Positions 2,041-16,752 of a DNA stretch of 23,798 bases are shown here, piece after piece. This stretch comes from a virus (lineage: Duplodnaviria > Heunggongvirae > Uroviricota > Caudoviricetes): positions 64,001-87,798 of the IMG/VR virus record IMGVR_UViG_3300036945_000242. One strand, written 5' to 3'. The position numbers were made by a program, and so were the translations under genes. The notes under the pieces were generated by a model. That model was not told the DNA's origin, did not search any database, and worked only from the letters and a program-made list of their open reading frames with translations. Each line of letters opens with the position of its first letter. Position 1 is the stretch's first letter.

Positions 2041-5000
2041 TTAAGCACAAGCGATAATTCTTAAATCTTTAATTCTTGGAACCGCTGAAGAGTTAGTAGA
2101 GCGCATAACTAATTTAACAGCCACAGAATCAAAAGGTACTAGGTTGTCTTCAGAATAGTCGATATCGTAGAACGATTGATCCCCGTTCTCTACTCTAACT
2201 ATACTAGAATCAGGATTACTCAAAACCCAGTTAATATCAGAGAAGTCGCTCACTGCGCCAGCGGAACTGGTTTTATAATATACTAATACTTCGGCTTCTG
2301 GAGGAATATTAGCAGCCAAACGAACTCTTAAGAAAGTAGAAGGAGTGGCTAGGTTAATCGCTCTAGAAACGTATTTACTAATAGATGAGCTTCCCATAGG
2401 CGTAATTTCATCAAAGAACGCTACTCTAGAAGTAACCGAAGTGGTACTTGCAGCAGATTCAGAAGTAAACGTTTTACCGCTAACAGTTATAACACCAGTA
2501 GTTCCGTTATTAGTAACCGAAGTAACTAAATAAGTCCCGTTATTTCCAGCAGTCGTAGCGTTAGCCACTGTAATATAATTACCAACCACAATAGTATCAT
2601 ACCAAGCCAACACATCAGCATTAGTAGTAGTAATAGTAGAACCCGAGAAGCTATACGCACCAGTAGCACCTGTAAATAATAAGTTTGAGTCTAACGCTGC
2701 TACGTTGGTATTAGTTTCAGCAGGAGCGTTAATTTTGTTAGAAATAGCGATAACTGAAGTTCTATGAGTATCAATAACAGGCGACAACGCATCATTAGAA
2801 GAAGCTAATTGTACAGAGAAAGCTAACGAATCATTTCCACCTAACTTAGTAGTTTCGTTAATTTCAGAAGCTACCATACGAGGTGAGTAGAAGTTATTGT
2901 TTTCATTCGCTAATACTGAACTGTAAGAACTATCCATTGTATAAGGCGTTTGGTTTCCATTATTAGACTTACCGCTAACAGTTTTAATCTTATAAGAGAT
3001 AGAAGTATCTGAGAACGATTGAGTTTGAACTTGAGGTTGGATAACGTCGTATTGAATATTCTTAGTCGCTTTAACCGTACTACCGCCACCATATCCAGAA
3101 GAAGTAGCTGAGGTAGAAACCGTTATTGTATAGCTGTCGTTAGTAACGTTAGCGATTTCATGGGTATCGTATAACTCTTCACTAGGAATACCGTTCACGT
3201 CAGCAGCCGAAGCGTTTGAAATAACAACATTTGACCCACTAGGCATTCCGTGGTCTCTATGCCAAACTCTAACTAAATTAGTACCTGCTTTAGTCTCAAA
3301 TGGGTCAATTTCTAAAGTATCTAACGGTAAAACGTCATTAACAAACTCTACATTACCTACGCTTGAAGTATCAAATTTCGCACGGTATATTGTAAACTTC
3401 ATATCTTGGTTCTGATCAGCAGTCCAAGTAGAAGCGTTTTGAGACTTAAACATAACCCCGTTATACGGTTGTTCAGATATGGTTCTGGAAGACCCTGGAA
3501 CCGTATCGCCCATTTGGGATATCCAAATCTTATAAGCGTTAGAATCCGATTGAACAACTAAAGCGTATTCACCATTGTTCTGTACATAAACTGGGCTAGA
3601 GAATACAAACGTTGTAGGCGTATTAAAGTCAGGGTATTCTACGCCCTCGCCGTCAATTACCGTAGTAGAAGATAAGTTTACTTCGCTAGATTGCTTAGAA
3701 ACCTTAGAGAAAGGTAAAATACGCTTTCCTGGGTAGCCGTTTACTACTTCACGAATTTCGATAGAAACAGGGACGTTAGCGTCTTTAGAAGCAAAGAATA
3801 AATCAACTTTAGTTAAGAAAGCTCCGCCAGTAGACTCAACTAAGAAAGTTTGAGCCAAGGGGTCATACCAACCAGTATCAGACACTACACGCTCAGAAGT
3901 CTCGACAATAACGTTATTTTCAATTAACTGTTCTTCAACTAATTGTGCGTTACGAGTAGAAAGTACGGTAGCTTGCTTAGTTTCTAAAATACCTTGAGCT
4001 GAGTAATTAACACGTGCTCTAGAGGAGAATTCGCCTGTAGCAACGTTATTATCTATCAACTTAAGCTCACGAATACCTGTACGGAAACGTGTCATATCGG
4101 TGTTAGGAATAGCGAAAAGCATATTCAAGTCGCCACTAAAGTTAGTAGTTAAAGCCGAACCTTTAGTATTGATTTCTAACGCTGTAATAGTACCAGTCGC
4201 TGTGCTTACGTTACCAGTAATAGTCTCGCCCGATACGAAAGTTCCCTTAACGTTAGCTACGAAAAGTGAAGTTTTATTTATGTTAGGATTAAATTCTTTA
4301 CCAACTACAACAGCTGTAGCTCCAGAAGTACCGCCCGTAACCACATCACCCCTAGTCAAACAACTTTGGGTATCTCCGTCTACCCTACGAGTAGGCTCAG
4401 TAGCCAAGCCACCCACATTAGTATCGTCAAGGAATGCGCCAGAAGTACCAGTGTATTCGATTTTCGAAGCTGGTGTACAAAATTCTGAAATAGGCGTGTT
4501 ATCGAAATAGCCATAGAAACGAGTATTTGGTTTTAATTTTTTAATCTGTACTAATATGTTTCTAGAACGAATGTAAGGGATAAACACGGTAGATAATACC
4601 TTATCCTCAACCACCTTAGTATCAATCTTAGCGATAATGCTAGTTTTAGTACCAATTCTAGATTTACCAACCTTGGTAGCTACGGTTTCGGTAACGATAC
4701 GACGCAGCGGACGTGTGCGACCCGATAACTTACCAAAGCGTTTATCCGCCTCGGCTACGGAAATTTGGATAGCTCCCTTTTCCGCCTTCGGCCAAGCACC
4801 CTCAGCCCTAGCTTCGTACGTCTTTTTAGTACCATCTACACTAATCGGCGTCCCAGTCCACTGGGTCTGCCATGCGTTCCATACAGTACCTAATACGCCA
4901 GCCTGATCAGCCATCATATACGCTATATTGAAGTTTCCTTCTTCATTCTTAAGAATATCAGGTCTACGGTCTACGTCAAACCACTCATCGGAAGAAGGAG

Positions 5001-8000
5001 TTAATCTAACGTCACCCAAGAATGTAAAGATAGCGTACGGATTTACGAACTCTGTGCGGGAAGCGTATGCTTGTGTTACTAAAGGGGCGTGTTCTAGAAT
5101 AGGTAACGTTATAACATCACCAGTTACTTGGTAACCAGCCGAATCTCGGTCAGTATCGTTAGAATTTTTCTCAATCATATTAACGTTTTTCATAGTAAAG
5201 AATGGGCGTAATTCGCCATTCTCCATATCTATGGAACACATATAATCGGGAGAACCTACGTCACCAACGTTATGCCCAGTAAAATTATCTACGATAAAGC
5301 CGTTTTTAAATCTATCTAAGTTGTCTGCGTCTTTAATAGATAAAGAAGAAGTTTCTTGTTCTAGGAGCGATAAAGAAGTATAATATTCTAAGGTATTGAT
5401 ACGTTGTTCAAGTTTACCAATATCCCTCATCGTATATCTACGATTATCAATCTTATTAACTTTTACGTTATTGCTTGTAGTTCCGAATGTGTATGGCTCT
5501 AACTCTAAAGTGTATAGAGACATACTAAGTTTAGCGTCTTCAGGAACGCCTGGATTTAACGAAGAAACTCCGTCAATCTTAAAGAACTTACCCGTAAAGT
5601 CAATAGCGATTTTATCAGTACGACTTAAGTAATACGTAAAGTCAGAGATAATATCTGTACCACGTTTAGGAATTAAAGTTCCTCCACCGCTACTAAAAGT
5701 CAACCCGTCATCGTTAATACGAGGTCTAAAATCTAAACAATCTCTTAACGGATAACCTCGATACGATGGAATATTACCATAAGGAACGTTGGCTGGGTAA
5801 GAATTTACAGAGAAATAATCTCCGTATGAGTGGGTAAAATACTCAAACGTAATTTGAATTGGAGCACTAGGGGCAGCGTATGAGGACTTAAGCGTTAAAG
5901 TACCGATATCGTAATGGGTGTCTCGCTGACCGTCGTCGAACTCAAATCTATCGGTAATGTCGTTAGAATAAGTTCCGGAAGGAGAAGCGAAAGACCCGTC
6001 CTTCATATTAACGCTCAATACTCGGTAACAATCCGCCTTACCTAAACTAATAACACCGCTTTTCGCTAGTTGTTCGGTAGTTATAGTTGTAGTTGCGGTT
6101 ACTAAAGTCTTAGATTTTTCAGTGCTGGTAGAACCCGTTTTAGTAACCGCCCCAATCACTGTACACGCAGCATTGTTATTAGCTAATTGGAAAGTTACAG
6201 AAGACCCCGAACGAACTGCGGAAGATGGGCTTAGTACCGCTCCCGTGGAATCTAAGGTGATAATATAATTATCGTTCTCATCAGTAGAAGCGAAAGTGCC
6301 TGAAGCGGTGGTAACGGTTAATTGACCAGAACCAGTAGTAGTTCCTGTGAATCGTTCATATACGCTATACGTAGTATCGTTAGTGTTGATAGAACTGCGT
6401 AAAGACTTAATAGCGTAATATGGTAGCGGGAATATTAAAGAAGAGCTATCGGGTTCTTTAATTTCAGTGGAAATAACTGAAATCGGAACTCCAGCTAATG
6501 TGTTAGAACTATCTACGGTCATAGTTTGTTGATCAACGATAGTCGCTACTCTAGCTAGGGTATTTTGTAAATAAACATAATCGCCTACGACTAAATCGGT
6601 TTGGAAAGATGTTCCGTTACCCGTTACGGTAGTTGTGCCTGATTGACTAACCGAGCCGATTAATTGGGTTACAATTGGGCTTATATTAGCTGAGAAAGAA
6701 CTACTTACAAAAGACTTAACTTTAGTGTTAAAATCTACGCCAGAATTTAATTTAACGTCAAATAAGAATAATTTATAAATTCCGTTTGAAGAGTTTACCG
6801 TACCGCTATCCCATTCGATAGCTTTAACTCGTGCTGTACCTAAAAGGGTTGCTCCTGATGGGACTCCGCTAGTTGTAGTTCTATTGTATAGGGATAAGGT
6901 CTCGAAAGAGTTTACGCTCGGTAACCCAGCAATTCCAGTCACTAATACGTAATTACCAATAGAAGAAGGTACTAATGAGCCGTCCGCCTGTGCGAAAACT
7001 CTAGCCTTATCTACTTCAACGTATTCAGTGGCGATTTTCTCAATCTCGTAACCTTGTACGTAAGCTTTTCCTGGCTCAAGACCGATAGCTAACTTACCCT
7101 CGTCTCCGTTTACGTAAACGCCACGGTTGTAATATGGGGTTTCGTTATATTCCCATTGTACGCCAGTTGTACCAGAACCGTCATAAGCCGAACCGATAGT
7201 ATGGGTAGGGGCTGTAGAACCTGAAGTTCCGCTGTTCTTTGCATAATACGTCTTACCGCCACTAACAACAACATCTCCCGCTAGGTAAGAGGTAGCAGTA
7301 GCCCAAGTACCACGGTTATTATTTCTATGTTCTCTTACGTCAATTTCAAAGGAATTAACCGTATAGTCGCCCGATTCATCGTATGTACGACGAGCCATAG
7401 TTTGCTCAAGAATAGCATAATCGGTAGTGCGTACTTGCTTCTTAACGCTACCTTCATCTACACGAGCTAACTCGATAAATCCGCTATCTTCGGTATCCGT
7501 TAAAGAACGTTTACTTAAAACTAAGTCGATAAAGTAGCGGTGAGCTCCTGGAGCTGCGTAATTGTAACTATTTTGAGCGTTATCTAAAATAGTCTCGTCA
7601 TCTTCAGGCGTAATTATAGATTCTACAACGTTAAGACCGATTCTATAAGAAGGCGATGCGGAGTATTTCTCTAACAGAATGGATTGAGTTTCGCATAATA
7701 CAAAGTATCCATTAACGTAATAAACGCCACGTTGAATAGAGGCGATAGAACCCACGCCAGTAGCGTTAGAAGCGATAGCTTGTACAGCGTATGTTAAATC
7801 TTCAGTGGCGATAATCTCGCCATTAGCGAACTTTTTAGTTACTGTATCAGTACCAGAATTTACATAGCGAACGTAAATGGTAGTGTAATCCGTACCTTCA
7901 GCGTGCGCAATGTCGATAATCTCGGCTACAATACCGCTAGTTCCGACTACACGAGTCCCTTTTAAATTTTCAATAAACGTTTCGGTAACTACGCCAGCGT

Positions 8001-8247
8001 ACGAAGCTTCTAATTTTACATAGTCAGCTTTAGTATCAATAGACATTTGTCCTGGAATTACCATCGCTCCTTGGTTAAAGAGGTGGTCGCCTTGGCGTTT
8101 AATTTGATTCTGGAGTACAGTTTGTAATTGGGTTAATTCTCTAGCCTGTACCGCTGCGGCAGGTCGGAAAAGAATTTTATAAAACTTCTTATTCTCATCG
8201 AAGTCGTCATAATACGGTTCGGTATTGAATTGGTTGTTATCTAACAT
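2041..8247 (-). CDS. vrlC: Large baseplate/virion structural protein, DUF4815 / VrlC-like (2068 aa)
   Basis: N-terminal PYYDDFDENKKFYKILFRP..AVQARELTQLQTVLQNQI motif, internal WYDPLAQTF and QN.S.WTADQ..D.KF motifs, and C-terminal PRIKDLRIIA. All are typical of this family downstream of gp8 in cyanophage-like T4 phages. Confidence 0.85.
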   Translation of the reverse strand: MLDNNQFNTEPYYDDFDENKKFYKILFRPAAAVQARELTQLQTVLQNQIKRQGDHLFNQGAMVIPGQMSIDTKADYVKLEASYAGVVTETFIENLKGTRVVGTSGIVAEIIDIAHAEGTDYTTIYVRYVNSGTDTVTKKFANGEIIATEDLTYAVQAIASNATGVGSIASIQRGVYYVNGYFVLCETQSILLEKYSASPSYRIGLNVVESIITPEDDETILDNAQNSYNYAAPGAHRYFIDLVLSKRSLTDTEDSGFIELARVDEGSVKKQVRTTDYAILEQTMARRTYDESGDYTVNSFEIDVREHRNNNRGTWATATSYLAGDVVVSGGKTYYAKNSGTSGSTAPTHTIGSAYDGSGTTGVQWEYNETPYYNRGVYVNGDEGKLAIGLEPGKAYVQGYEIEKIATEYVEVDKARVFAQADGSLVPSSIGNYVLVTGIAGLPSVNSFETLSLYNRTTTSGVPSGATLLGTARVKAIEWDSGTVNSSNGIYKLFLFDVKLNSGVDFNTKVKSFVSSSFSANISPIVTQLIGSVSQSGTTTVTGNGTSFQTDLVVGDYVYLQNTLARVATIVDQQTMTVDSSNTLAGVPISVISTEIKEPDSSSLIFPLPYYAIKSLRSSINTNDTTYSVYERFTGTTTGSGQLTVTTASGTFASTDENDNYIITLDSTGAVLSPSSAVRSGSSVTFQLANNNAACTVIGAVTKTGSTSTEKSKTLVTATTTITTEQLAKSGVISLGKADCYRVLSVNMKDGSFASPSGTYSNDITDRFEFDDGQRDTHYDIGTLTLKSSYAAPSAPIQITFEYFTHSYGDYFSVNSYPANVPYGNIPSYRGYPLRDCLDFRPRINDDGLTFSSGGGTLIPKRGTDIISDFTYYLSRTDKIAIDFTGKFFKIDGVSSLNPGVPEDAKLSMSLYTLELEPYTFGTTSNNVKVNKIDNRRYTMRDIGKLEQRINTLEYYTSLSLLEQETSSLSIKDADNLDRFKNGFIVDNFTGHNVGDVGSPDYMCSIDMENGELRPFFTMKNVNMIEKNSNDTDRDSAGYQVTGDVITLPILEHAPLVTQAYASRTEFVNPYAIFTFLGDVRLTPSSDEWFDVDRRPDILKNEEGNFNIAYMMADQAGVLGTVWNAWQTQWTGTPISVDGTKKTYEARAEGAWPKAEKGAIQISVAEADKRFGKLSGRTRPLRRIVTETVATKVGKSRIGTKTSIIAKIDTKVVEDKVLSTVFIPYIRSRNILVQIKKLKPNTRFYGYFDNTPISEFCTPASKIEYTGTSGAFLDDTNVGGLATEPTRRVDGDTQSCLTRGDVVTGGTSGATAVVVGKEFNPNINKTSLFVANVKGTFVSGETITGNVSTATGTITALEINTKGSALTTNFSGDLNMLFAIPNTDMTRFRTGIRELKLIDNNVATGEFSSRARVNYSAQGILETKQATVLSTRNAQLVEEQLIENNVIVETSERVVSDTGWYDPLAQTFLVESTGGAFLTKVDLFFASKDANVPVSIEIREVVNGYPGKRILPFSKVSKQSSEVNLSSTTVIDGEGVEYPDFNTPTTFVFSSPVYVQNNGEYALVVQSDSNAYKIWISQMGDTVPGSSRTISEQPYNGVMFKSQNASTWTADQNQDMKFTIYRAKFDTSSVGNVEFVNDVLPLDTLEIDPFETKAGTNLVRVWHRDHGMPSGSNVVISNASAADVNGIPSEELYDTHEIANVTNDSYTITVSTSATSSGYGGGSTVKATKNIQYDVIQPQVQTQSFSDTSISYKIKTVSGKSNNGNQTPYTMDSSYSSVLANENNNFYSPRMVASEINETTKLGGNDSLAFSVQLASSNDALSPVIDTHRTSVIAISNKINAPAETNTNVAALDSNLLFTGATGAYSFSGSTITTTNADVLAWYDTIVVGNYITVANATTAGNNGTYLVTSVTNNGTTGVITVSGKTFTSESAASTTSVTSRVAFFDEITPMGSSSISKYVSRAINLATPSTFLRVRLAANIPPEAEVLVYYKTSSAGAVSDFSDINWVLSNPDSSIVRVENGDQSFYDIDYSEDNLVPFDSVAVKLVMRSTNSSAVPRIKDLRIIACA

Positions 8248-8277: not shown

Positions 8278-11217
8278 TTAAAACCGAATAACAGTTCTCA
8301 TCGTAACAGCTTGGTCTTGTGTAGGCGTAAACGCTTGTCTGTTGTCGATATAAAGTAAATCTCCAGAATATTTATCTACGGACGGTGGAGTTACAGAAGT
8401 CGCCGTAAAGGAATAAGGAATTGTAGAATTAGCTTTAGCAAATTCGCTATTTGCGGTAGGAACCGCATTATCCAAAGATTGTAAAAGAATTGCTGTTCCT
8501 GTGTTAGCTACAATTCTAAATCTAGGAGAGTTATCCCCTACCATATTTAGTAAAGTATCCGCAGGGAATATTCCAACATCAGTTGTAGAACTAATTACCC
8601 AACACGCTGACGCTAAGGTATCCACTAAAGAAGAAGCTTCGCCGTATTTTCTAGGATTCTTAATAACACCAATTTGACGGTAGTCGTTATTGATATTGAA
8701 GCCTTGGTTTTTATCGTTAGAAATATTAGTATAAAACATTAACGTTCTAGCGTATAGGTTGTTGATAGCTTCTTTACCCATACCGCCATAAGGAGATATA
8801 ACCACACGAGCCGAAGCCCCATAAGCATCTATATTTCCTACGATAGTAGCATAAGCCCAACGATACCCGCTACCCGCATTAGTAACGTTAATTTTAGTAA
8901 CACGACCCGTTTCCGGATCTATAACGACTTGCCCCGTAGCACCGCTACCGTCCCCAACAATAGTAACCGTAGCATTAGTGTAACCGTATCCGCCAGAAAC
9001 CACAGGAATAGAAGAAATACTTCCGTCAATTGTCAATAATTCGATGTTAGCTTGTTGGGTGTCGATATTACCGATACTTAAATCAATAGAAACGGAAGCT
9101 TCTTCTCCGTCGCCGTTTAAGCTGACGTTAGCGTAAGAATACCCGACGCCACCGTCCAAAATACGAGCACCAACAATAGAACCGAAGGTCGAGGAGTATT
9201 TAAGTACCGTAGAACCCGAAGTAACCATTCCCGCAGAGTGTATTGGGGCTGTGGAACCCGTTGTACCGCCTACAATTACTTGATATAAGTTAGTACCATA
9301 CCAAACGTATTGACCCTTTACATAAGAAGTCGTCGGAGTCCACAAAGACCCCATAGTGCTATTAGATATAATAGGAATAATACGAGCTTCAGACTTAACT
9401 GTAGAAACTGAAGCGGTAGCTAAAGTACCATCACCCGTTATAGTTATACTTGGCGTCTTGGAGTATCCCGCACCATACTTAATTAAACAAACCGCAGTGG
9501 CTGCTTCTCCAGCGTAAGCTAAAGTTGCTGTTCCGTTGGTGGCTGAACCGCTAGTATGAGTAGGGGCGGTGGAACCCGTTGTACCCGCTATTGTTACGGT
9601 ATATAACCTATTGCTAGCGAATATTTGGTCGTTAGCGTTCAAAGCGGTAGAAGCCGTCCAGCTAGTGCCTATCGTAATATCGGGGGCTTCCGTATAGTCT
9701 ACGCCTGGATCTAGGATTTCTGCGGATATGACTGAACCGTTCTGTAATATGGCTACCGCTGAAGCTCCGCTCCCATCACCACTAAAACTTATTGTCGGAG
9801 CGGTAAGGTATCCAGAACCAAAAGAAACTAAATCTATTCTTCGTAAAGAGCCATACAATGTAATATCGGTTACTTTACCCGCTGAAACGGTAGCGGTAGC
9901 GGTGGCAGTAGAACCAACGAACTTTAAAGCACTCGTCCCATTACTAGCTATTTCATATCTATGTGTAGGAGCGGTAACACCCGTAACGCCCGATATTTCT
10001 ACTCGGTAAATGTTATTATTATAAGATAGGTATTGGCCTGATATGACTGAAGTTTCTGCGTTCCAAACTGAAGCCCCAGAAATAGGCGGTTCAAAAGCGA
10101 CTGAAGCTGAAGTGTATCCGCTACCTTGGGTATCTATTTGAACGTCTGTAATGAATAGCGGGTTAGCCTCTTGATAGCCGTCACCCTGTACCGATATAGT
10201 AGCACCAGTGTATCCAGTACCGCCATTATCAATACGAACAGCTTGTATAGTACCGCCAGAATAGAATTGATTCTTGAGGGCGGTAGTAACAGGAATATAA
10301 GATTCGGTTAAGAATTTATTTCTTAAAGAAATAGGAATCGTAAATAAGAATTTCCAAACGTATCCGTCTGAGTATGTATTAGCTGAGCTAGAAGTACCAA
10401 TAGGAGCAACCGTAGACGGTGCACCTCCATTATTGTTTAGACAGACGTATATATTGTTATCTTCCGTAATAACGTAAAATAAACAATCTTCCATCTTAAG
10501 CTTACCAGTAGCCGATATACCGATAACGGAATCCGCATGAGCCGATTCGCCGTTATTATCCGCTATGGTTACCGTAGGCTTATTCGTATAGCCTGTACCT
10601 CGATTAGTTACATTAACCTCTACAACAGCACCCGCATAAAGCGAGCAAGTAGCCGTAGCACCCGTTCCGCCTCCGTTATCTACTACAACGTATTTTAAAG
10701 AACAAGTACCATTAGTAGCATTACCGCTAGTATGGGTAGGGGCGGAAGTTCCAGAAGTACCTTCCCCATTTACCATATAATATCTACCGCCTACCGATAA
10801 CATATCACCAATAGCGTAGGCGGTAGAAGCAGCCCAAGTAACAGAACCCGTGCTACCGATATAGACTTTAGGGGTAGCGATATAATTCGCTCCTCCACTG
10901 ATTAAGTCTATACCAATAACTTCTGAGCAATAATCGTCATCATACGAATCGTAAACGTTACCCGAAACCCAATCAATTCTAGGTATAACAAACGAAACAT
11001 CTGTAGGTTTAATCTGTTTCATAGTGATAATATCGCTACGAGTATCTATTTCGTATTTGAAGGAATCGGTAGGAAATGGTGGTAACGCATCGTTATCCCA
11101 AGTCAAAGTCTTACCTAAAAAATAGTAATACCGAGATTGTTGTTGGGAAATCTCGTTATACAATCCTTCTGCGATTGTATTGTGTAGAGTTGATTTTAAT
11201 AAGGAAGAATTTGACAT
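8278..11217 (-). CDS. gp8: Baseplate wedge protein gp8-like, expanded (979 aa)
   Basis: gp8-type motifs YYFLGK..W...P.P.DS, IPRIDW.SG.VYD.YDD, FYVIT....YVCL.N, DGY.WKFL.TI...KFLT..YIPV, and C-terminal ND.RQIG.IKNP...YSGDLLYIDNR. The centre has about ten GxGY beta-repeats and four CBM-like inserts. Confidence 0.85.
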   Translation of the reverse strand: MSNSSLLKSTLHNTIAEGLYNEISQQQSRYYYFLGKTLTWDNDALPPFPTDSFKYEIDTRSDIITMKQIKPTDVSFVIPRIDWVSGNVYDSYDDDYCSEVIGIDLISGGANYIATPKVYIGSTGSVTWAASTAYAIGDMLSVGGRYYMVNGEGTSGTSAPTHTSGNATNGTCSLKYVVVDNGGGTGATATCSLYAGAVVEVNVTNRGTGYTNKPTVTIADNNGESAHADSVIGISATGKLKMEDCLFYVITEDNNIYVCLNNNGGAPSTVAPIGTSSSANTYSDGYVWKFLFTIPISLRNKFLTESYIPVTTALKNQFYSGGTIQAVRIDNGGTGYTGATISVQGDGYQEANPLFITDVQIDTQGSGYTSASVAFEPPISGASVWNAETSVISGQYLSYNNNIYRVEISGVTGVTAPTHRYEIASNGTSALKFVGSTATATATVSAGKVTDITLYGSLRRIDLVSFGSGYLTAPTISFSGDGSGASAVAILQNGSVISAEILDPGVDYTEAPDITIGTSWTASTALNANDQIFASNRLYTVTIAGTTGSTAPTHTSGSATNGTATLAYAGEAATAVCLIKYGAGYSKTPSITITGDGTLATASVSTVKSEARIIPIISNSTMGSLWTPTTSYVKGQYVWYGTNLYQVIVGGTTGSTAPIHSAGMVTSGSTVLKYSSTFGSIVGARILDGGVGYSYANVSLNGDGEEASVSIDLSIGNIDTQQANIELLTIDGSISSIPVVSGGYGYTNATVTIVGDGSGATGQVVIDPETGRVTKINVTNAGSGYRWAYATIVGNIDAYGASARVVISPYGGMGKEAINNLYARTLMFYTNISNDKNQGFNINNDYRQIGVIKNPRKYGEASSLVDTLASACWVISSTTDVGIFPADTLLNMVGDNSPRFRIVANTGTAILLQSLDNAVPTANSEFAKANSTIPYSFTATSVTPPSVDKYSGDLLYIDNRQAFTPTQDQAVTMRTVIRF

Positions 11218-11238: not shown

Positions 11239-11682
11239 TTAGCTTACAGTGATAACCCAGCTGATAGAAATAGAATCGCCAGCAGCTTTATTTACAACAG
11301 GGAAGGTTGTGCGACATAACATAGTACCACCAGAAGAGGCATTAAAAATACCCGCTTCAGTGATAGCACCAGTACCCGTACCCGCAGGGAAAGTAGCAGT
11401 AGCGGTAATAGCGTTGGCGGCTGCGGTGAAAGCGGATAAGGAAACACGTCCAGCTTGGGTGCCGAGGGCGGTATCGCCAACGACTGGGGAAGCAGTTCCA
11501 GTACCGATTGCCATATGACTCATGACGGTAGAAGAAGTACCGACCATACGACTAGCTGCGTAAGATTTACCTGTTGTGACTACTAAGTTAGGGACTACGA
11601 TAGTCTCTTTTAGTTTACCTTCTTGATTTCGAACGGTGATAGATAATTCACCTTTCATTTTTAAGTCTTCGTTAATGTTCAT
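11239..11682 (-). CDS. Small virion protein (147 aa from the likely start), similar to tail-collar/fibre-anchor (DUF3751-like) domains
   Basis: Motifs NLVVTTG..Y.ASR, SHMAIGTG, GDTAL, EAGIFNA, RTTFPVVNK. Start reassigned from 11715 to ATG 11682, which has an AGGA RBS and avoids overlap with gp7. The family assignment is by motif memory only. Confidence 0.6.
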   Translation of the reverse strand: MNINEDLKMKGELSITVRNQEGKLKETIVVPNLVVTTGKSYAASRMVGTSSTVMSHMAIGTGTASPVVGDTALGTQAGRVSLSAFTAAANAITATATFPAGTGTGAITEAGIFNASSGGTMLCRTTFPVVNKAAGDSISISWVITVS

Positions 11683-11689
11683 AGTTTTC

Positions 11690-14600
11690 CTAGTTAAAGA
11701 GGGGATATCTAACATTAGAATATACCTCGGAGTCCCAATCGTCAGACTGAGCGTAAGCGTTTATTCTAATCGAACCGCTTTCTGTTCCCAAATAAGCGGT
11801 ATCTTCAATATATTTAGTTGTTTGTATAATAGGTGAGTCAGTAATAGTTGCGGTAGAATTTTCTAAAGTTACTTCATCGTTCAATATAGAATTTTCATCT
11901 ATTACTTTATCTATCGTATTTCTAATATATTCTGTTGTATATATGTTATTATCATCACTACCACTTATATTTAATGGGATAATTGGTTGAATTTTTATCT
12001 TAGCTATGTCATTCGCTATATCGCCTATTGCGCTAACTACAGCAATATTAGGTGCTAATAGTGATTCATCGTTAGTTTTAACGACAGAAGAAATTGTTCC
12101 CTTACTTCTGAACCCATAATAATCAGTAGAACTCCAAGAAGCCCCTAACATAAATGTTCCATCGTTAATATCAGATTGTTCACTCAACTCTAATAAAATA
12201 CCCGATGCGCTATCGGTAAGTTTATTTACTCCAGCCGTTATAGTAATTTTATCGGTTCCAGTAAAATCTACTGAGCTAGTAGTTCTAAATACGCTGGCGG
12301 TACTATATCTAACAATTATATAAACAGGAAACCCAACAGTATCATAAGTTACCCCAGAAGATGCGACGGATTGATATTCGGGTATATTTGAATTGGAAAA
12401 TACTTTTTCCCTTAAATCAGCATTTAATACTGACCCAACAACATTTACCGTCAAATTACCTGCAATACAAGTTATAATATAAGTTCCTGCGGTATAAAAT
12501 CCAGAATTTGCTCCAGTCATAGATATACTACCAGAACCGCTAAACGATAAAACGTATAACGTAGATTTAACCGAAATAGATTGCGAAGGTAAAGTATTTG
12601 TGGAATTTAACGTATTTACTCTACAACTAATTCCAGGAAATAAGCTAGTGTTGGTACTATCAATTATCATGTGATTACCCCTACCGCTTTTATCATTTAT
12701 TCTAGCTACCCTAGAGTTACTAGATATAGAAGTTATCGGTATTTCTCCAGCTTTATCGGCAAATATGGTCGATAAATCAGAAGGGTCGTACCATGCGCCT
12801 TGTTCGCCAGAAGCGAATAGATATGATGGATCGAACGCAGAAGTTTCTTTAGTTATTTTACTTTTAATATAGTTTTCGGTAAAAAATATTTCCGATTCGC
12901 TAGAGGCGGCACCTCTAACAATCATACCAAAAAGTCTATTATCGACAAAAGAAGATGTATAACTTCTACCAAACAATTTCATAACGTAATTACCGTACGT
13001 TCCGCTACCTTGGTCGGTATTAGAGGTAAATTCGGGAGCATTTAAGTTTAGTTCTGTATCGTTTACATATTTTTCAACATCCGTACTGTTTATGGTATCG
13101 GATAAGAAAGTATTATTATCGTCGACGGTAACGCCATCGTTTAAAAATGTAGAATTATCTACCGCTTTATTAACATAAATGCTATTGCTATCGGAAACCG
13201 ATTGAGTATCTTCTAATGCTTTATTAACATAAATGCTATTGCTATCGGAAACCGATTGAGTATCTTCTAATGCTTTATTAACAATATACGTCGTAGAATC
13301 GGTTGTTGGTATCGAGTCTTCTAATGCTTTATCTATTGAAAATAGTAAGTCTTCATCTTGAGTAATGGTATCTTCTAAAGCTTTATTAAAAGATATAATG
13401 CTAGAGTCAGAAAAATAATCTAAAGCATCTACCAAAATTTTATTAAACCCTACCTGCGTATAGTCAGTAGCGTATATAAAATCGGGTTCTATTGATTTAC
13501 TAAAAGTAATACTACTGATACTATCCGATATAATATACTCATCTCTAAGCGTTAAAGCCAACACCTTAATCATAGATTCTAGGGTAACGCTAATATCAAA
13601 ATTGTTTACAATACCATACTCGGCAAACATTGCCATACCGCTCGGGTGAAGTAGGGTTTTAACGGCTGATTTAAAGTCTTCAATACGCTCATCAATTTTA
13701 ATAACATAAGAAAAAGCTTGATAATACTTGCTGTCTTGAATGTAGATATCGTCGTCTAAGAAGCCGTCGTTATTTTTGTAGAATCCAGGATACTTAGCCA
13801 CGCCACCTAAAGTAATTTTTATAATAGCAGCGTCTTCAGGATTTTCTAGAACCCCTGAGTTAGAAGAAGAAAATTGAGCTAAAACTTCTCCCGCATAAGA
13901 ACCATCCCAAGCACTTACTGCGTAGTTATTTCTATTTACAAATCCTCGTTCGGTAAATCCGTTAAGGTTGTCGTTAAAAGTTATTTGACTTCCACTAACC
14001 TCGTATGGCGGTAATGTAGATTCCTCCTTAGAATCGGCTACAATTGTTTGTATGATATCCGTATCATACCCAATACCATATTTAATAAATTGTATAGTTT
14101 TAATACCGCCGACTGAATCTACGCTGGAAATTTTAACTACAGAACCATACCCATTCTCAGTTTGTATCGGTATCAATTGTCCTACTTTAAATCCAATACC
14201 TTTTTGTTGAACTTTAACGGTAGAAGTGGTTGGAACGATTTTGCCGATAAACGTATCACCTAAACTGATAGTATCGCCTACGGAAAGAGAACCGAAATAC
14301 TTTCGATTTATTAAGATTTCGTAAGTATTTTCTGAATACGTTTCTACTCCATCCACTAAAATAGTTACTGGCGTTATACGCTCAACTAAAATTTTAATCG
14401 TCTTAGAGGTAGTTATAACGTCTACTGATTGCTCTAATAGTTGTTGAATGTCCCCGTACTCAACTCTACAAAATATAGAAGTTTCCTGTTCCCACTTACC
14501 GTCTGAAGCCCTAAGCATTTGACGTCCAGGATAACTCATTTCAATATCTTTATTGAAGAGTAACCTAAACAATAACTTATAAGAAGCCTCAGACCCCTTA

Positions 14601-14869
14601 GCCAAGTATAAGTCCTTAATGTGTTGCATTAAGAACCGCTCGTTTACTACGGTGTAAGGTAGGTTGAAGCCTATTTCGTTTTTAAAGTATTTTATAAACG
14701 AGTCTAAAGTGGTGTCTAAGTCTCTAACTGACTTTAAATCTAAGCGAGTTTGCGTTTCTAGAAAATCGTAATACGCCTCTAAAAACGCTATGAATGTAGG
14801 GTAATCTTCCCTGACAAAATCAGGGACTTGACTAGCCACAATAGAAGATATATTCGGTCTAGTTATCAT
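11690..14869 (-). CDS. gp7: Baseplate wedge initiator gp7-like with C-terminal repeat array and inserted lectin-like domain (1059 aa)
   Basis: QVPDFVREDYPTFIAFLEAYY, IKDLYLAKGSE.SYKLLFRLLF, ASDGKW and YYQAFSYVIK....FK..VK.LLHPSG motifs; position between gp6 and gp8. Confidence 0.8.
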   Translation of the reverse strand: MITRPNISSIVASQVPDFVREDYPTFIAFLEAYYDFLETQTRLDLKSVRDLDTTLDSFIKYFKNEIGFNLPYTVVNERFLMQHIKDLYLAKGSEASYKLLFRLLFNKDIEMSYPGRQMLRASDGKWEQETSIFCRVEYGDIQQLLEQSVDVITTSKTIKILVERITPVTILVDGVETYSENTYEILINRKYFGSLSVGDTISLGDTFIGKIVPTTSTVKVQQKGIGFKVGQLIPIQTENGYGSVVKISSVDSVGGIKTIQFIKYGIGYDTDIIQTIVADSKEESTLPPYEVSGSQITFNDNLNGFTERGFVNRNNYAVSAWDGSYAGEVLAQFSSSNSGVLENPEDAAIIKITLGGVAKYPGFYKNNDGFLDDDIYIQDSKYYQAFSYVIKIDERIEDFKSAVKTLLHPSGMAMFAEYGIVNNFDISVTLESMIKVLALTLRDEYIISDSISSITFSKSIEPDFIYATDYTQVGFNKILVDALDYFSDSSIISFNKALEDTITQDEDLLFSIDKALEDSIPTTDSTTYIVNKALEDTQSVSDSNSIYVNKALEDTQSVSDSNSIYVNKAVDNSTFLNDGVTVDDNNTFLSDTINSTDVEKYVNDTELNLNAPEFTSNTDQGSGTYGNYVMKLFGRSYTSSFVDNRLFGMIVRGAASSESEIFFTENYIKSKITKETSAFDPSYLFASGEQGAWYDPSDLSTIFADKAGEIPITSISSNSRVARINDKSGRGNHMIIDSTNTSLFPGISCRVNTLNSTNTLPSQSISVKSTLYVLSFSGSGSISMTGANSGFYTAGTYIITCIAGNLTVNVVGSVLNADLREKVFSNSNIPEYQSVASSGVTYDTVGFPVYIIVRYSTASVFRTTSSVDFTGTDKITITAGVNKLTDSASGILLELSEQSDINDGTFMLGASWSSTDYYGFRSKGTISSVVKTNDESLLAPNIAVVSAIGDIANDIAKIKIQPIIPLNISGSDDNNIYTTEYIRNTIDKVIDENSILNDEVTLENSTATITDSPIIQTTKYIEDTAYLGTESGSIRINAYAQSDDWDSEVYSNVRYPLFN
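13164..13283. repeat. Perfect 54-bp tandem duplication (2 copies plus a 12-bp partial) within gp7
   Basis: 13164-13217 is identical to 13218-13271 (gctttattaacataaatgctattgctatcggaaaccgattgagtatcttctaat). It encodes VNKALEDTQSVSDSNSIY twice and sits within about 7 degenerate 18-aa repeats. Confidence 0.97.
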
Positions 14870-14877
14870 ATTATACC

Positions 14878-16752
14878 TTACCCTCTACTTGAGGTAAACA
14901 CGAAATTAGTTCCAGCACGATTATCACCATTAGAAGTCTTATCCGCAATGGAGTTTACCGTAATATAATTCTCATCTATTTGGGCGATTTGCGTATAAGC
15001 CGAAATTACATCGTTAGATTGAGGTTTAATTAAAAGTTCAAATTCAGTACCCGATACTAAAGCCGATATATTTAAATTGCTAATAGTTATTTTACCACTA
15101 GCGTAGTCAACAGTTCCGATTTTAGGGTTTACTACAATGTGATTTACGTATGAACCGCTAGTAGCGGAGGTTTCTGAGCTTCCGTGGTAGAATAAAACTA
15201 AATTACCCACCCCATCATCCTCTAGGTAGTGTATTCTAGAATCGCCAGTAATATAGAACCCAGTAGAAGATATTGCTTCCTCGGGTACGCCTTCAGAATA
15301 AATTGGGTTAATCAAGTTAATTTTATACTCAGCAGAAATACCGTATTTTGGTACAATAGTTCTACGTAAGTATATTGTAGTTATATTGCTAACGATGGCG
15401 GGGTCACACATATCAATCAATCTACTGAGCTTCGAGAATCTCATCATACCGTCAAACCTCTGAAGCTCATCCGTATTATACTTCTTGATAGTGTTAAGAA
15501 CTTCGGTCTGTAATTCACGGCTAGTTTTAGTGGTTTCTCTAGCGTTATAGTATATGGTAGTGTTTACTGCTATGTTGATAAACTCGGGGTCTAACAACTC
15601 AGGCGTTATAGAAACTACGCTACGAGTTTTGAGTACTGTGTTGATAATCTCGGTTTTCTGTGAAGATGTTAGGGCTAGAGCATTAGAAGGTTTAACGCAA
15701 ATAAACGTTTTACCGTAAATAGGCGGGTCATTATCCTCACCACCCCAAACCGCCACAGAAGCTATATTAGGATACTTAGAGTAAATCAAAGATTTAAAAT
15801 CATCAGGCGTTACCGCTCTATTTTGAGCCGCATATAACCTAGGAGCATTGTATTTAATACTATCCAACGTTTCAGGAGCCTCACCACCCGCTGCAGGAGA
15901 TATTAAAGTAATATTAGGGCGACTAGAAGGTAGCGTAGTAGAACCGTTAAAGGTAAAAGTTCTACAACCATTAGCTGAACCCATACGACTTACAAAATAG
16001 TCTATATGTACTACATTACCAAGCTCGACTCCAGAGGAAACTATACCATCGCCAAAATATACCTCATACAACCCATTATCAATTTCCTTAACGTAATATA
16101 CGTTGCTAGTAGATTCTAATTCTACAATAGAACTAGCGGGGTAAAACGTAGTAAATTTATCTGAGCTAGAAGCTTCTTGAACTTGTACTTTTAGCGTAGA
16201 TATATCGGCGTATTGGTTAGGGATAATAATCTTTTGACCATACGCTACCTCGTAACGGTAAGACAAAGGAGAACCTTCAACTAACTCTAAATTATTAAAT
16301 TCGTATCGAGTACCTGTGTAATTAGCGGTAACTTCTTCTAGGTTATAGAACGTATAAGTCACCCCATCAATAGTAGAAGAAAAGGGTTGTAATTTAGGTA
16401 AAGTTACGTTAGTGGGTAAGGTAGCGGTAGGGCTAATAGGAGCTATGTATAGGTTTAAATACGCTCTAGCTGACTTAGCTGAACGTGGGGAATAACCTAA
16501 CATTTTAGACAACGAAACTACGCTTTCACGCTTACTAGCTGAATCGAGAAACATCTCATTCAAAGCAAAGTTAGTGTAAAGAGCGTTATAATGGGTATTA
16601 TAGGCTAGTACGTCTATCAAAACCGATAAACCCGCACCATCAAAGTCGTAGTCAGAAAACTTACTCTGACCTCGCATATAGTCTTTAATATTGGTTTTTA
16701 TCTGGTCAAAATCCAGCTCGCTATAATTTATTCTTTTTGTGTTGCTTGCCAT
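14878..16752 (-). CDS. gp6: Baseplate wedge subunit gp6
   Basis: ELDFDQIK..IK.Y....KFSDYDFDG.GLSVLIDVLAYNTHYNA...N...NEMFLDSA, LGYSPRS, GG...E.LDSIKYNAP..YAAQNRAVT..DF and WGGEDN.PP.YG motifs. Confidence 0.96.
   Translation of the reverse strand: MASNTKRINYSELDFDQIKTNIKDYMRGQSKFSDYDFDGAGLSVLIDVLAYNTHYNALYTNFALNEMFLDSASKRESVVSLSKMLGYSPRSAKSARAYLNLYIAPISPTATLPTNVTLPKLQPFSSTIDGVTYTFYNLEEVTANYTGTRYEFNNLELVEGSPLSYRYEVAYGQKIIIPNQYADISTLKVQVQEASSSDKFTTFYPASSIVELESTSNVYYVKEIDNGLYEVYFGDGIVSSGVELGNVVHIDYFVSRMGSANGCRTFTFNGSTTLPSSRPNITLISPAAGGEAPETLDSIKYNAPRLYAAQNRAVTPDDFKSLIYSKYPNIASVAVWGGEDNDPPIYGKTFICVKPSNALALTSSQKTEIINTVLKTRSVVSITPELLDPEFINIAVNTTIYYNARETTKTSRELQTEVLNTIKKYNTDELQRFDGMMRFSKLSRLIDMCDPAIVSNITTIYLRRTIVPKYGISAEYKINLINPIYSEGVPEEAISSTGFYITGDSRIHYLEDDGVGNLVLFYHGSSETSATSGSYVNHIVVNPKIGTVDYASGKITISNLNISALVSGTEFELLIKPQSNDVISAYTQIAQIDENYITVNSIADKTSNGDNRAGTNFVFTSSRG

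Follow-up and report, generated by a model that had tools for sequence, protein, structure and literature searches.

The stretch of DNA analysed here (the window) comprises 23,798 nucleotides (nt) from a member of the Caudoviricetes and corresponds to positions 64,001 to 87,798 of the IMG/VR record IMGVR_UViG_3300036945_000242. Its minus strand carries an open reading frame (ORF) for a gp7-like baseplate wedge protein of 1059 amino acids (aa) (P0001; window 11690-14869 including the stop codon), assigned from the ORF list, Pfam and PHROG. Within this gp7 we found one complete, circularly permuted unit of a lectin/LamG-like phage domain, the core elements of which are neither lost nor duplicated. 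We consider it probable that the arrangement as a whole represents the recent gain of a permuted, still-folding ConA/LamG-like domain in gp7 of a T4-like phage.

Block order of the domain in gp7 and in its family

Homologues of the domain were assembled as 120 proteins of 206-658 aa, 84 proteins of 582-1854 aa and 150 representatives taken from the 6297 matches to the family (E<=0.001) that an exhaustive HMMER scan returned. BLASTP comparisons used P0001 residues 600-975 as the query against the 120 stand-alone homologues, the 84 longer ones and 136 representatives, and a hidden Markov model (HMM) of the minimal domain (265 profile positions) was derived from 24 minimal homologues. Essentially every complete homologue among the ~339 database proteins compared by BLASTP had the order N-(m)-M-C, with the C block at the very C-terminus, and the tally of architectures was dominated by N-mM-C, N-M-C and NmM-C. 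In P0001, profile searches with the minimal-domain HMM gave the segment order C-N-m-M, with E-values far beyond chance. This order was found only in P0001 and in P0122, which has the same sequence on a second contig, and no permuted copy was recovered by the minimal-domain HMM among 80 IMG/VR loci, where one tandem array was present. The initial annotation had claimed that the normally C-terminal block comes first in gp7, in reversal of the canonical order; both BLASTP and the HMM, applied across the homologues and the 80 loci, agree with this claim, both blocks match one family, and no homologue other than the identical P0122 carries them in the order seen in gp7.

The C block (DQGSGTYGNY...LFGMIVRGA...ENYIKSK; window 12854-13033, minus strand, residues 613-672), which forms the last third of the jelly roll in canonical members, is placed first in P0001. 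It matched profile positions 203-262 (E 5e-18), and BLASTP aligned residues 607-671 with the C-terminal 55-70 residues of the homologues, a few residues short of their stop. A closing linker, ITKETS (window 12836-12853, minus strand, residues 673-678), leads from the old C-terminus to the old N-terminus, as judged from its match to tandem-array junctions and from the structural model. The N block follows (FDPSYLFASGEQGAWYDPSDLST...DKSGRGNH; window 12662-12835, minus strand, residues 679-736), with profile positions 13-73 matching residues 674-736 (E 3e-24) and with BLASTP alignments to homologue residues ~15-75. A nested small seven-stranded beta-sandwich, m (window 12398-12625, minus strand, residues ~749-824), occupies the variable insertion site of the family, and the M block (...VDFTGTDKITITAGVNKL...GDIANDIAKIKIQP; window 11984-12307, minus strand, residues 855-962), which corresponds to the first two-thirds of the Laminin_G_3 region, ends on the strand preceding the cut. 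Profile positions ~95-199 fell on P0001 residues ~860-961, a match reported as positions 7-199 to residues 766-961 (E 9e-33); in canonical members PF13385 starts at the equivalent position. BLASTP aligned residues 679-960 with the homologues' N-terminal and central portions. The block positions initially given, 12845-13027 for the C block and 11984-12835 for the N-insert-M part, were right to within a few codons, the latter part being placed here at residues 674-962 (window 11984-12853).

The break points of the two parts are complementary within three profile positions, only positions 200-202 being unaligned, and the pieces re-joined in silico gave one continuous match (profile positions 7-262, 162 bits). 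No further domain fragments were detected in P0001 with filters off at E<=10, and neither a canonical copy nor a spare fragment was found at E<=10 in the 87.8-kb record, which CheckV estimates to be ~55% complete. All three blocks of the P0001 domain are 40-65% identical to the GEQGAWYDPSD family. Among the columns conserved at >=80%, those retained in P0001 were 51/71 (72%) in N-m-M and 14/23 (61%) in C; the changes at conserved columns are mostly conservative, and the invariant residues of the C block are retained.

In the canonical domain, the cut lies right after the conserved '...GIGDISGD...LRVNG' strand and ahead of '...DQGTGNYGNY'. PF13385 (Laminin_G_3) extends over both M and C in canonical members (residues 88-243 in P0032, a protein of 257 aa), which puts the break inside the jelly roll. 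Canonical homologues scored 26-38 bits against PF13385 over M and C (cut-off 27.6), and the family gave no match in P0001 residues 600-975 at E<=1, as would be expected where the region covered by the model is split. A PDB sequence search and PHROGs also returned nothing for residues 600-975.

Two further candidates were set aside. P0279 appeared as a second permuted case in a single BLAST high-scoring segment pair (P0001 residues 608-964), but the profile showed an ordinary canonical domain at its C-terminus. Several BLAST alignments extended over 'LNLNA' (residues 607-611), which might be taken for a trimming duplicate of the 'IKIQP'/'LRVNG' strand; this overlap was not claimed, because the residues are in register with the 18-residue repeat of gp7 and the profile leaves them unaligned.

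Two observations concern the family at large. Homologues P0002-P0341 have a hypervariable insertion site where the N block ends and the M block begins (in P0001, residues 737-854; window 12308-12661); the inserts at this site range from none, in proteins of 250-285 aa, to ~400 aa. The N block alone is also fused to other proteins, such as GDSL/SGNH esterases (P0184, P0187, P0188 and P0190).

Insertion into the gp7 repeat region and predicted fold

The label gp7 is reasonable for P0001 because profile matches and synteny agree. The protein scored 42.7 bits against PF23786 Baseplate_wedge (cut-off 27) in its N-terminal part only, and residues 5-280 matched PHROG 17744, a baseplate wedge subunit (E 8e-50). 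A gp6-like ORF with Gp6-like domains lies upstream (window 14878-16752) and a Phage-Gp8-like ORF is the ORF after next (window 8278-11217); the order gp6-like, gp7, small ORF, gp8-like is identical in a related contig, L003.

Two parts of P0001 are shared with its relatives: the conserved gp7 body (window 13262-14869, minus strand, residues 1 to ~536), common to relatives of ~600 aa, and the conserved C-terminal tail (...IIQTTKYIEDTAYLGTESGSIRINAY...NVRYPLFN; window 11693-11863, minus strand, residues ~1003-1059), 74-84% identical to the C-termini of P0342-P0345. In a MAFFT alignment with these four closest gp7 proteins (586-610 aa), the segment between body and tail (window 11864-13261, minus strand, residues ~537-1002) was absent from all of them. 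The extra segment comprises added repeat units, the permuted domain and a linker, and its edges are blurred by the repeats. The four relatives, which lack it, are 72-74% identical to P0001 (residues 1-567 aligned to their residues 1-580) and 74-84% identical over the last 50-57 residues. The lectin-like domain was absent from all 119 other gp7 homologues checked. At the DNA level, L003 is collinear with the window through gp6, gp7, the small ORF, the gp8-like gene and the gene for a 2068-aa protein, with 79% identity down to window position 13482 and 81% from position 11826 downward; the intervening 11827-13481 equals just 284 nt in L003, the gp7 of which has 602 aa. We regard the segment as a true insertion because relatives at 72-74% identity lack the domain and keep the same C-terminal tail, in agreement with the initial proposal of a domain inserted into gp7.

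The insertion site is repetitive. Five 54-nt (18-aa) tandem repeat units (...IYVNKALEDTQSVSDSNS...; window 13152-13396, minus strand, residues ~492-573) were recognised by a repeat search and internal blastn, two adjacent units being 97% identical. The 18-residue periodicity runs on in degenerate form to residue 610, up to the seam, which at residue 611 falls on a repeat-unit boundary. This repeat region is a hypervariable hotspot, since it is the sole part of the 13-kb module that cannot be aligned with the ~80%-identical L003. Thus, on sequence comparison, the domain segment is a recent insertion in the 18-residue repeat region of gp7, with the C-terminal tail retained. The same arrangement is found on contigs of 3.6 kb and 87.8 kb, the additional contig (L002, JGI 3300043137) being 100% identical in sequence.

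Structure prediction was carried out with a composite alignment, in which canonical homologues were split into N-M and C rows, supplemented with windows that span natural tandem junctions. With this alignment, AlphaFold2 predicted residues 600-970 to form one compact domain (predicted local distance difference test score [pLDDT] 92.6, predicted template modelling score [pTM] 0.91), with pLDDT values of 94-98 in the C block and 95-98 in the closing linker; a single-sequence AlphaFold2 run on residues 585-985 gave a pLDDT of 30. The cut is flanked by the first strand of the model (613-616) and its last one (955-962). When the C block (603-673) and N-m-M (674-964) were supplied to ESMFold2 as separate chains, their pairing scored 0.94 and the best of 3 controls scored 0.01, with contact agreement of at least 93% between runs and a partner pLDDT of at least 83. 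The mark applied in this split-chain test is reached by 58/80 solved complexes and 2/110 mismatched pairs, counts that apply only roughly here because we supplied our own alignments. In the split-chain models the central C-block strand 649-651 packs between the N-block strand 692-694 and the M-block strand 877-880. Such tests are often passed by halves of one domain because they resemble solved folds, and resemblance to known ConA-like structures may account for the score here; it speaks for compatibility of the two parts rather than proves their association. On these models the permuted segment is predicted to fold as one intact domain.

The fold matches of the model are ConA-like, two-sheet jelly-roll beta-sandwiches, and almost all of them span only model residues ~76-367; one of the few alignments starting at residue 11 is to 1ajo_B, a GH16 engineered as a circular permutant. 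Together with the coverage of M and C by PF13385 in canonical members, these matches bear out the lectin/LamG-like assignment made initially. Model residues 150-225, the variable nested insert, form a separate small sandwich similar to the C-terminal domain of A223 of Sulfolobus turreted icosahedral virus and to CBM16. Foldseek against the PDB returned nothing meaningful (best E 6e-3, TM 0.09), as expected because the domain is permuted and carries a nested insert, and BFVD gave one good unnamed match (A0A292GJA3_2, E 3e-11, TMq 0.61), which is uninformative on function.

Origin, alternative explanations and putative function

We propose that a piece of ~460 residues was inserted into the C-terminal 18-residue repeat region of the gp7-like wedge protein, and that the core of the insertion is a full copy of the jelly-roll domain of this uncharacterised ConA/LamG-like phage family, carrying a nested small beta-sandwich. 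The chain would enter the domain at the canonical turn after the '...LRVNG' strand and run first through the C block; a linker of 6-7 residues would tie the old C-terminus to the old N-terminus, and the N block, the nested domain and the M block would follow. The chain would then leave at the turn by which it entered, so that two neighbouring connections would attach the domain to gp7 and the conserved C-terminal tail could still be fitted into the baseplate.

As to the source of the inserted piece, the balance tips slightly towards a tandem array of the domain, from which a single repeat length would have been captured out of register. Natural tandem arrays exist in P0227 (two full copies), P0220, P0219, P0284, P0125 and locus L074, and single BLAST alignments cross both a tandem inter-copy junction and the C-to-N junction of P0001 with a length difference of <=3 residues (for example, P0001 residues 615-734 with residues 604-720 of P0227). 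In P0001 and the tandem arrays alike, 6-7 residues separate a conserved Lys from an F/L-x-P motif. Stand-alone members carry a leader of 15-35 residues and terminate in '...KTGAY'; the P0001 junction (residues 672-679) shows neither feature. Capture from an array is favoured because the C-to-N junction resembles inter-copy junctions and lacks a stand-alone leader or end. The captured piece may have been linear; alternatively, recombination between copies may have excised it as a one-unit circle. Two routes had been offered by the initial annotation, a circular DNA intermediate and duplication with trimming; junction length and sequence favour the second, in the form of duplication or a tandem array plus trimming, over the first. 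The same permuted and folded domain might instead derive from a single-copy gene or an excised one-unit circle that was opened at the hairpin and then integrated, a derivation that we consider fairly unlikely. The exact one-unit length without overlap or loss would suit a re-opened circle, and a close tandem donor was not found; against this, residues 672-679 show a match to tandem junctions instead of a leader, a '...KTGAY' end or a start or stop remnant. Since a circle excised from a tandem array would yield the same product, the circle and tandem-capture models overlap.

Three other explanations were considered. The segment might be the relic of a decayed tandem array, in which the tail of one copy is followed by a C-terminally truncated second copy and the C block is just a linker. 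Tandem arrays of the domain do exist, the P0001 junction is tandem-like and the fold of the permuted segment is predicted; nevertheless, two independent truncations would have a chance of only a few percent of producing break points complementary within 3/265 profile positions, the C block keeps its invariant residues, no upstream N/M or downstream C remnant appeared with filters off at E<=10, and the prediction is one compact domain, so that we judge a relic improbable. Very improbable is a domain swap, in which the C block of one gp7 would complete the N-M part of a neighbouring gp7: the two parts do associate as separate chains in the split-chain test, but the 6-7 residue linker is predicted at pLDDT 95-98 within an intramolecular fold of pTM 0.91, and there is no indication of contact between the gp7 C-terminal regions of neighbouring wedges. 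The least probable explanation is an assembly artefact, a chimeric or rearranged contig giving only an apparent permutation. The sequence is metagenomic, and the identical contig L002 may not be independent. An artefact, however, would need three in-frame junctions (gp7-C, C-N and M-gp7) in one 3.2-kb open frame, together with parts that are exactly complementary and a junction of tandem type; the insert is flanked on either side by unique gp7 sequence, both contigs show the arrangement, and collapse of a tandem repeat would leave the canonical order, not a permuted one.

With regard to function, we hold it about evenly balanced that the domain is a putative added module for binding carbohydrate or the host surface, displayed on the baseplate. 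This suggestion follows from the fold class, from the nested domain resembling a carbohydrate-binding module (CBM) and from display by a wedge protein in a hypervariable region. The old termini of the domain would lie close together, because so short a linker bridges them. A canonical-order insert would probably also be tolerated, and grafting need not have depended on permutation. The initial idea that permutation aids grafting thus fared unevenly: the domain is both permuted and inserted, but a need for permutation is not supported, the native termini being close as well.

Several points weigh against the recent gain of a binding module by capture from an array. No high-identity tandem donor was found, the best homologues being 42-45% identical. 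The arrangement is known from a single lineage only, as two identical contigs that may not be independent, and selection on the permuted form is without comparative support. The composition gives no sign of a foreign origin for the insert (GC 0.31-0.38, versus 0.33-0.37 in the rest of gp7). The fold is a prediction only, and predictors tend to rebuild a family fold from homologous pieces. To our knowledge, no ligand-binding residues have been defined for the family. In addition, the four canonical contexts examined, a small sample (L004, L005, L006/L007 and L088), lie among head/packaging genes or beside a lysin, and leave a receptor-binding role unestablished even family-wide. Canonical members were sited in the portal-protease interval, in the cement protein-portal interval, and beside UvsW and an M15 peptidase; in Pseudomonas phage vB_PsaM_M1, the only cultured phage with one, the member is upstream of the terminase. 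These locations hint that free-standing members are head-associated or have some other role unrelated to fibres, and the description of the family as fibre-associated, given initially, was supported by none of the four contexts of this small sample.

Baseplate neighbours, related systems and significance

Other genes of the module showed features of their own. The gp8-like protein (window 8278-11217, minus strand) has 979 aa, against only 337 positions in the Pfam Phage-Gp8 model, and carries several copies of a '...TSG..APTHTSG...' motif with weak similarity to CBM_5_12. A weak CBM_5_12 match was also seen in the product of the next gene, a 2068-aa DUF4815 protein (window 2041-8247, minus strand), and the size of both proteins is kept in L003. 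A 158-aa ORF (window 11239-11715, minus strand), which overlaps the end of gp7 by 26 nt, showed below-threshold similarity to the podophage fibre protein Gp80 and to a tail-collar fibre N-terminal domain; L003 has a 147-aa ORF in the equivalent position.

The closest comparison for the inserted domain is its own GEQGAWYDPSD/Laminin_G_3 phage family, with which it shares the conserved residues and the variable N-M insertion site. Members of that family have the order N-m-M-C and are free-standing or C-terminal, whereas the P0001 domain has the order C-N-m-M and is embedded in a baseplate protein. Natural and engineered permutants of ConA-like jelly rolls are unrelated in sequence to the P0001 domain; P0001 differs from them in that the permutation coincides with an insertion, is recent, and has both the unpermuted family and an insert-free sister gp7 at hand. 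Carbohydrate-binding modules are reportedly present in other phage baseplate proteins, namely the 'evolved' Dit of Lactobacillus phage J-1 and BppA of Tuc2009. Those inserts lie in a siphovirus Dit host protein, whereas the P0001 insert lies in a myovirus gp7-like wedge, and we know of no permutation described for the J-1 Dit or Tuc2009 BppA inserts. In the literature searched, the coverage of which was incomplete, no phage baseplate protein was described as carrying a permuted lectin-like insert. Permutation of ConA-like sandwiches and lectin-like baseplate inserts were each already known, and their combination here is new.

In the permutation-by-duplication model, a tandem duplication is followed by loss of the outer parts. 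P0001 resembles this model in that tandem arrays exist and the C-to-N junction matches an inter-copy junction; it differs in that an intermediate with two full copies in gp7 was not observed, and capture of an out-of-register piece from another gene is equally compatible. In a broader proposal, which we advance tentatively and regard as rather unlikely, out-of-register capture from tandem arrays would be a general, previously unnoticed route by which free-standing or C-terminal lectin-like domains of phages become insertable into loops, the permuted form being selected because its ends meet at a hairpin; a conserved baseplate scaffold such as gp7, which has to retain its own C-terminal tail, would in this way gain a new host-binding specificity at a single stroke.

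As a rule, natural circular permutations are deduced by comparing families that diverged long ago. Here an unpermuted family with thousands of members, tandem arrays as a possible intermediate and an insert-free sister gene of ~80% DNA identity are at hand together, so that permutation by duplication and its tie to domain insertion can be examined on a recent event, which makes P0001 a good model case. Pfam and Foldseek missed the domain because it is permuted, and scans that take block order into account may therefore reveal more cases. For phage biology, the finding means that a conserved wedge protein gains a lectin-like module in a hypervariable repeat region, by which host-binding specificity could plausibly be altered or added.

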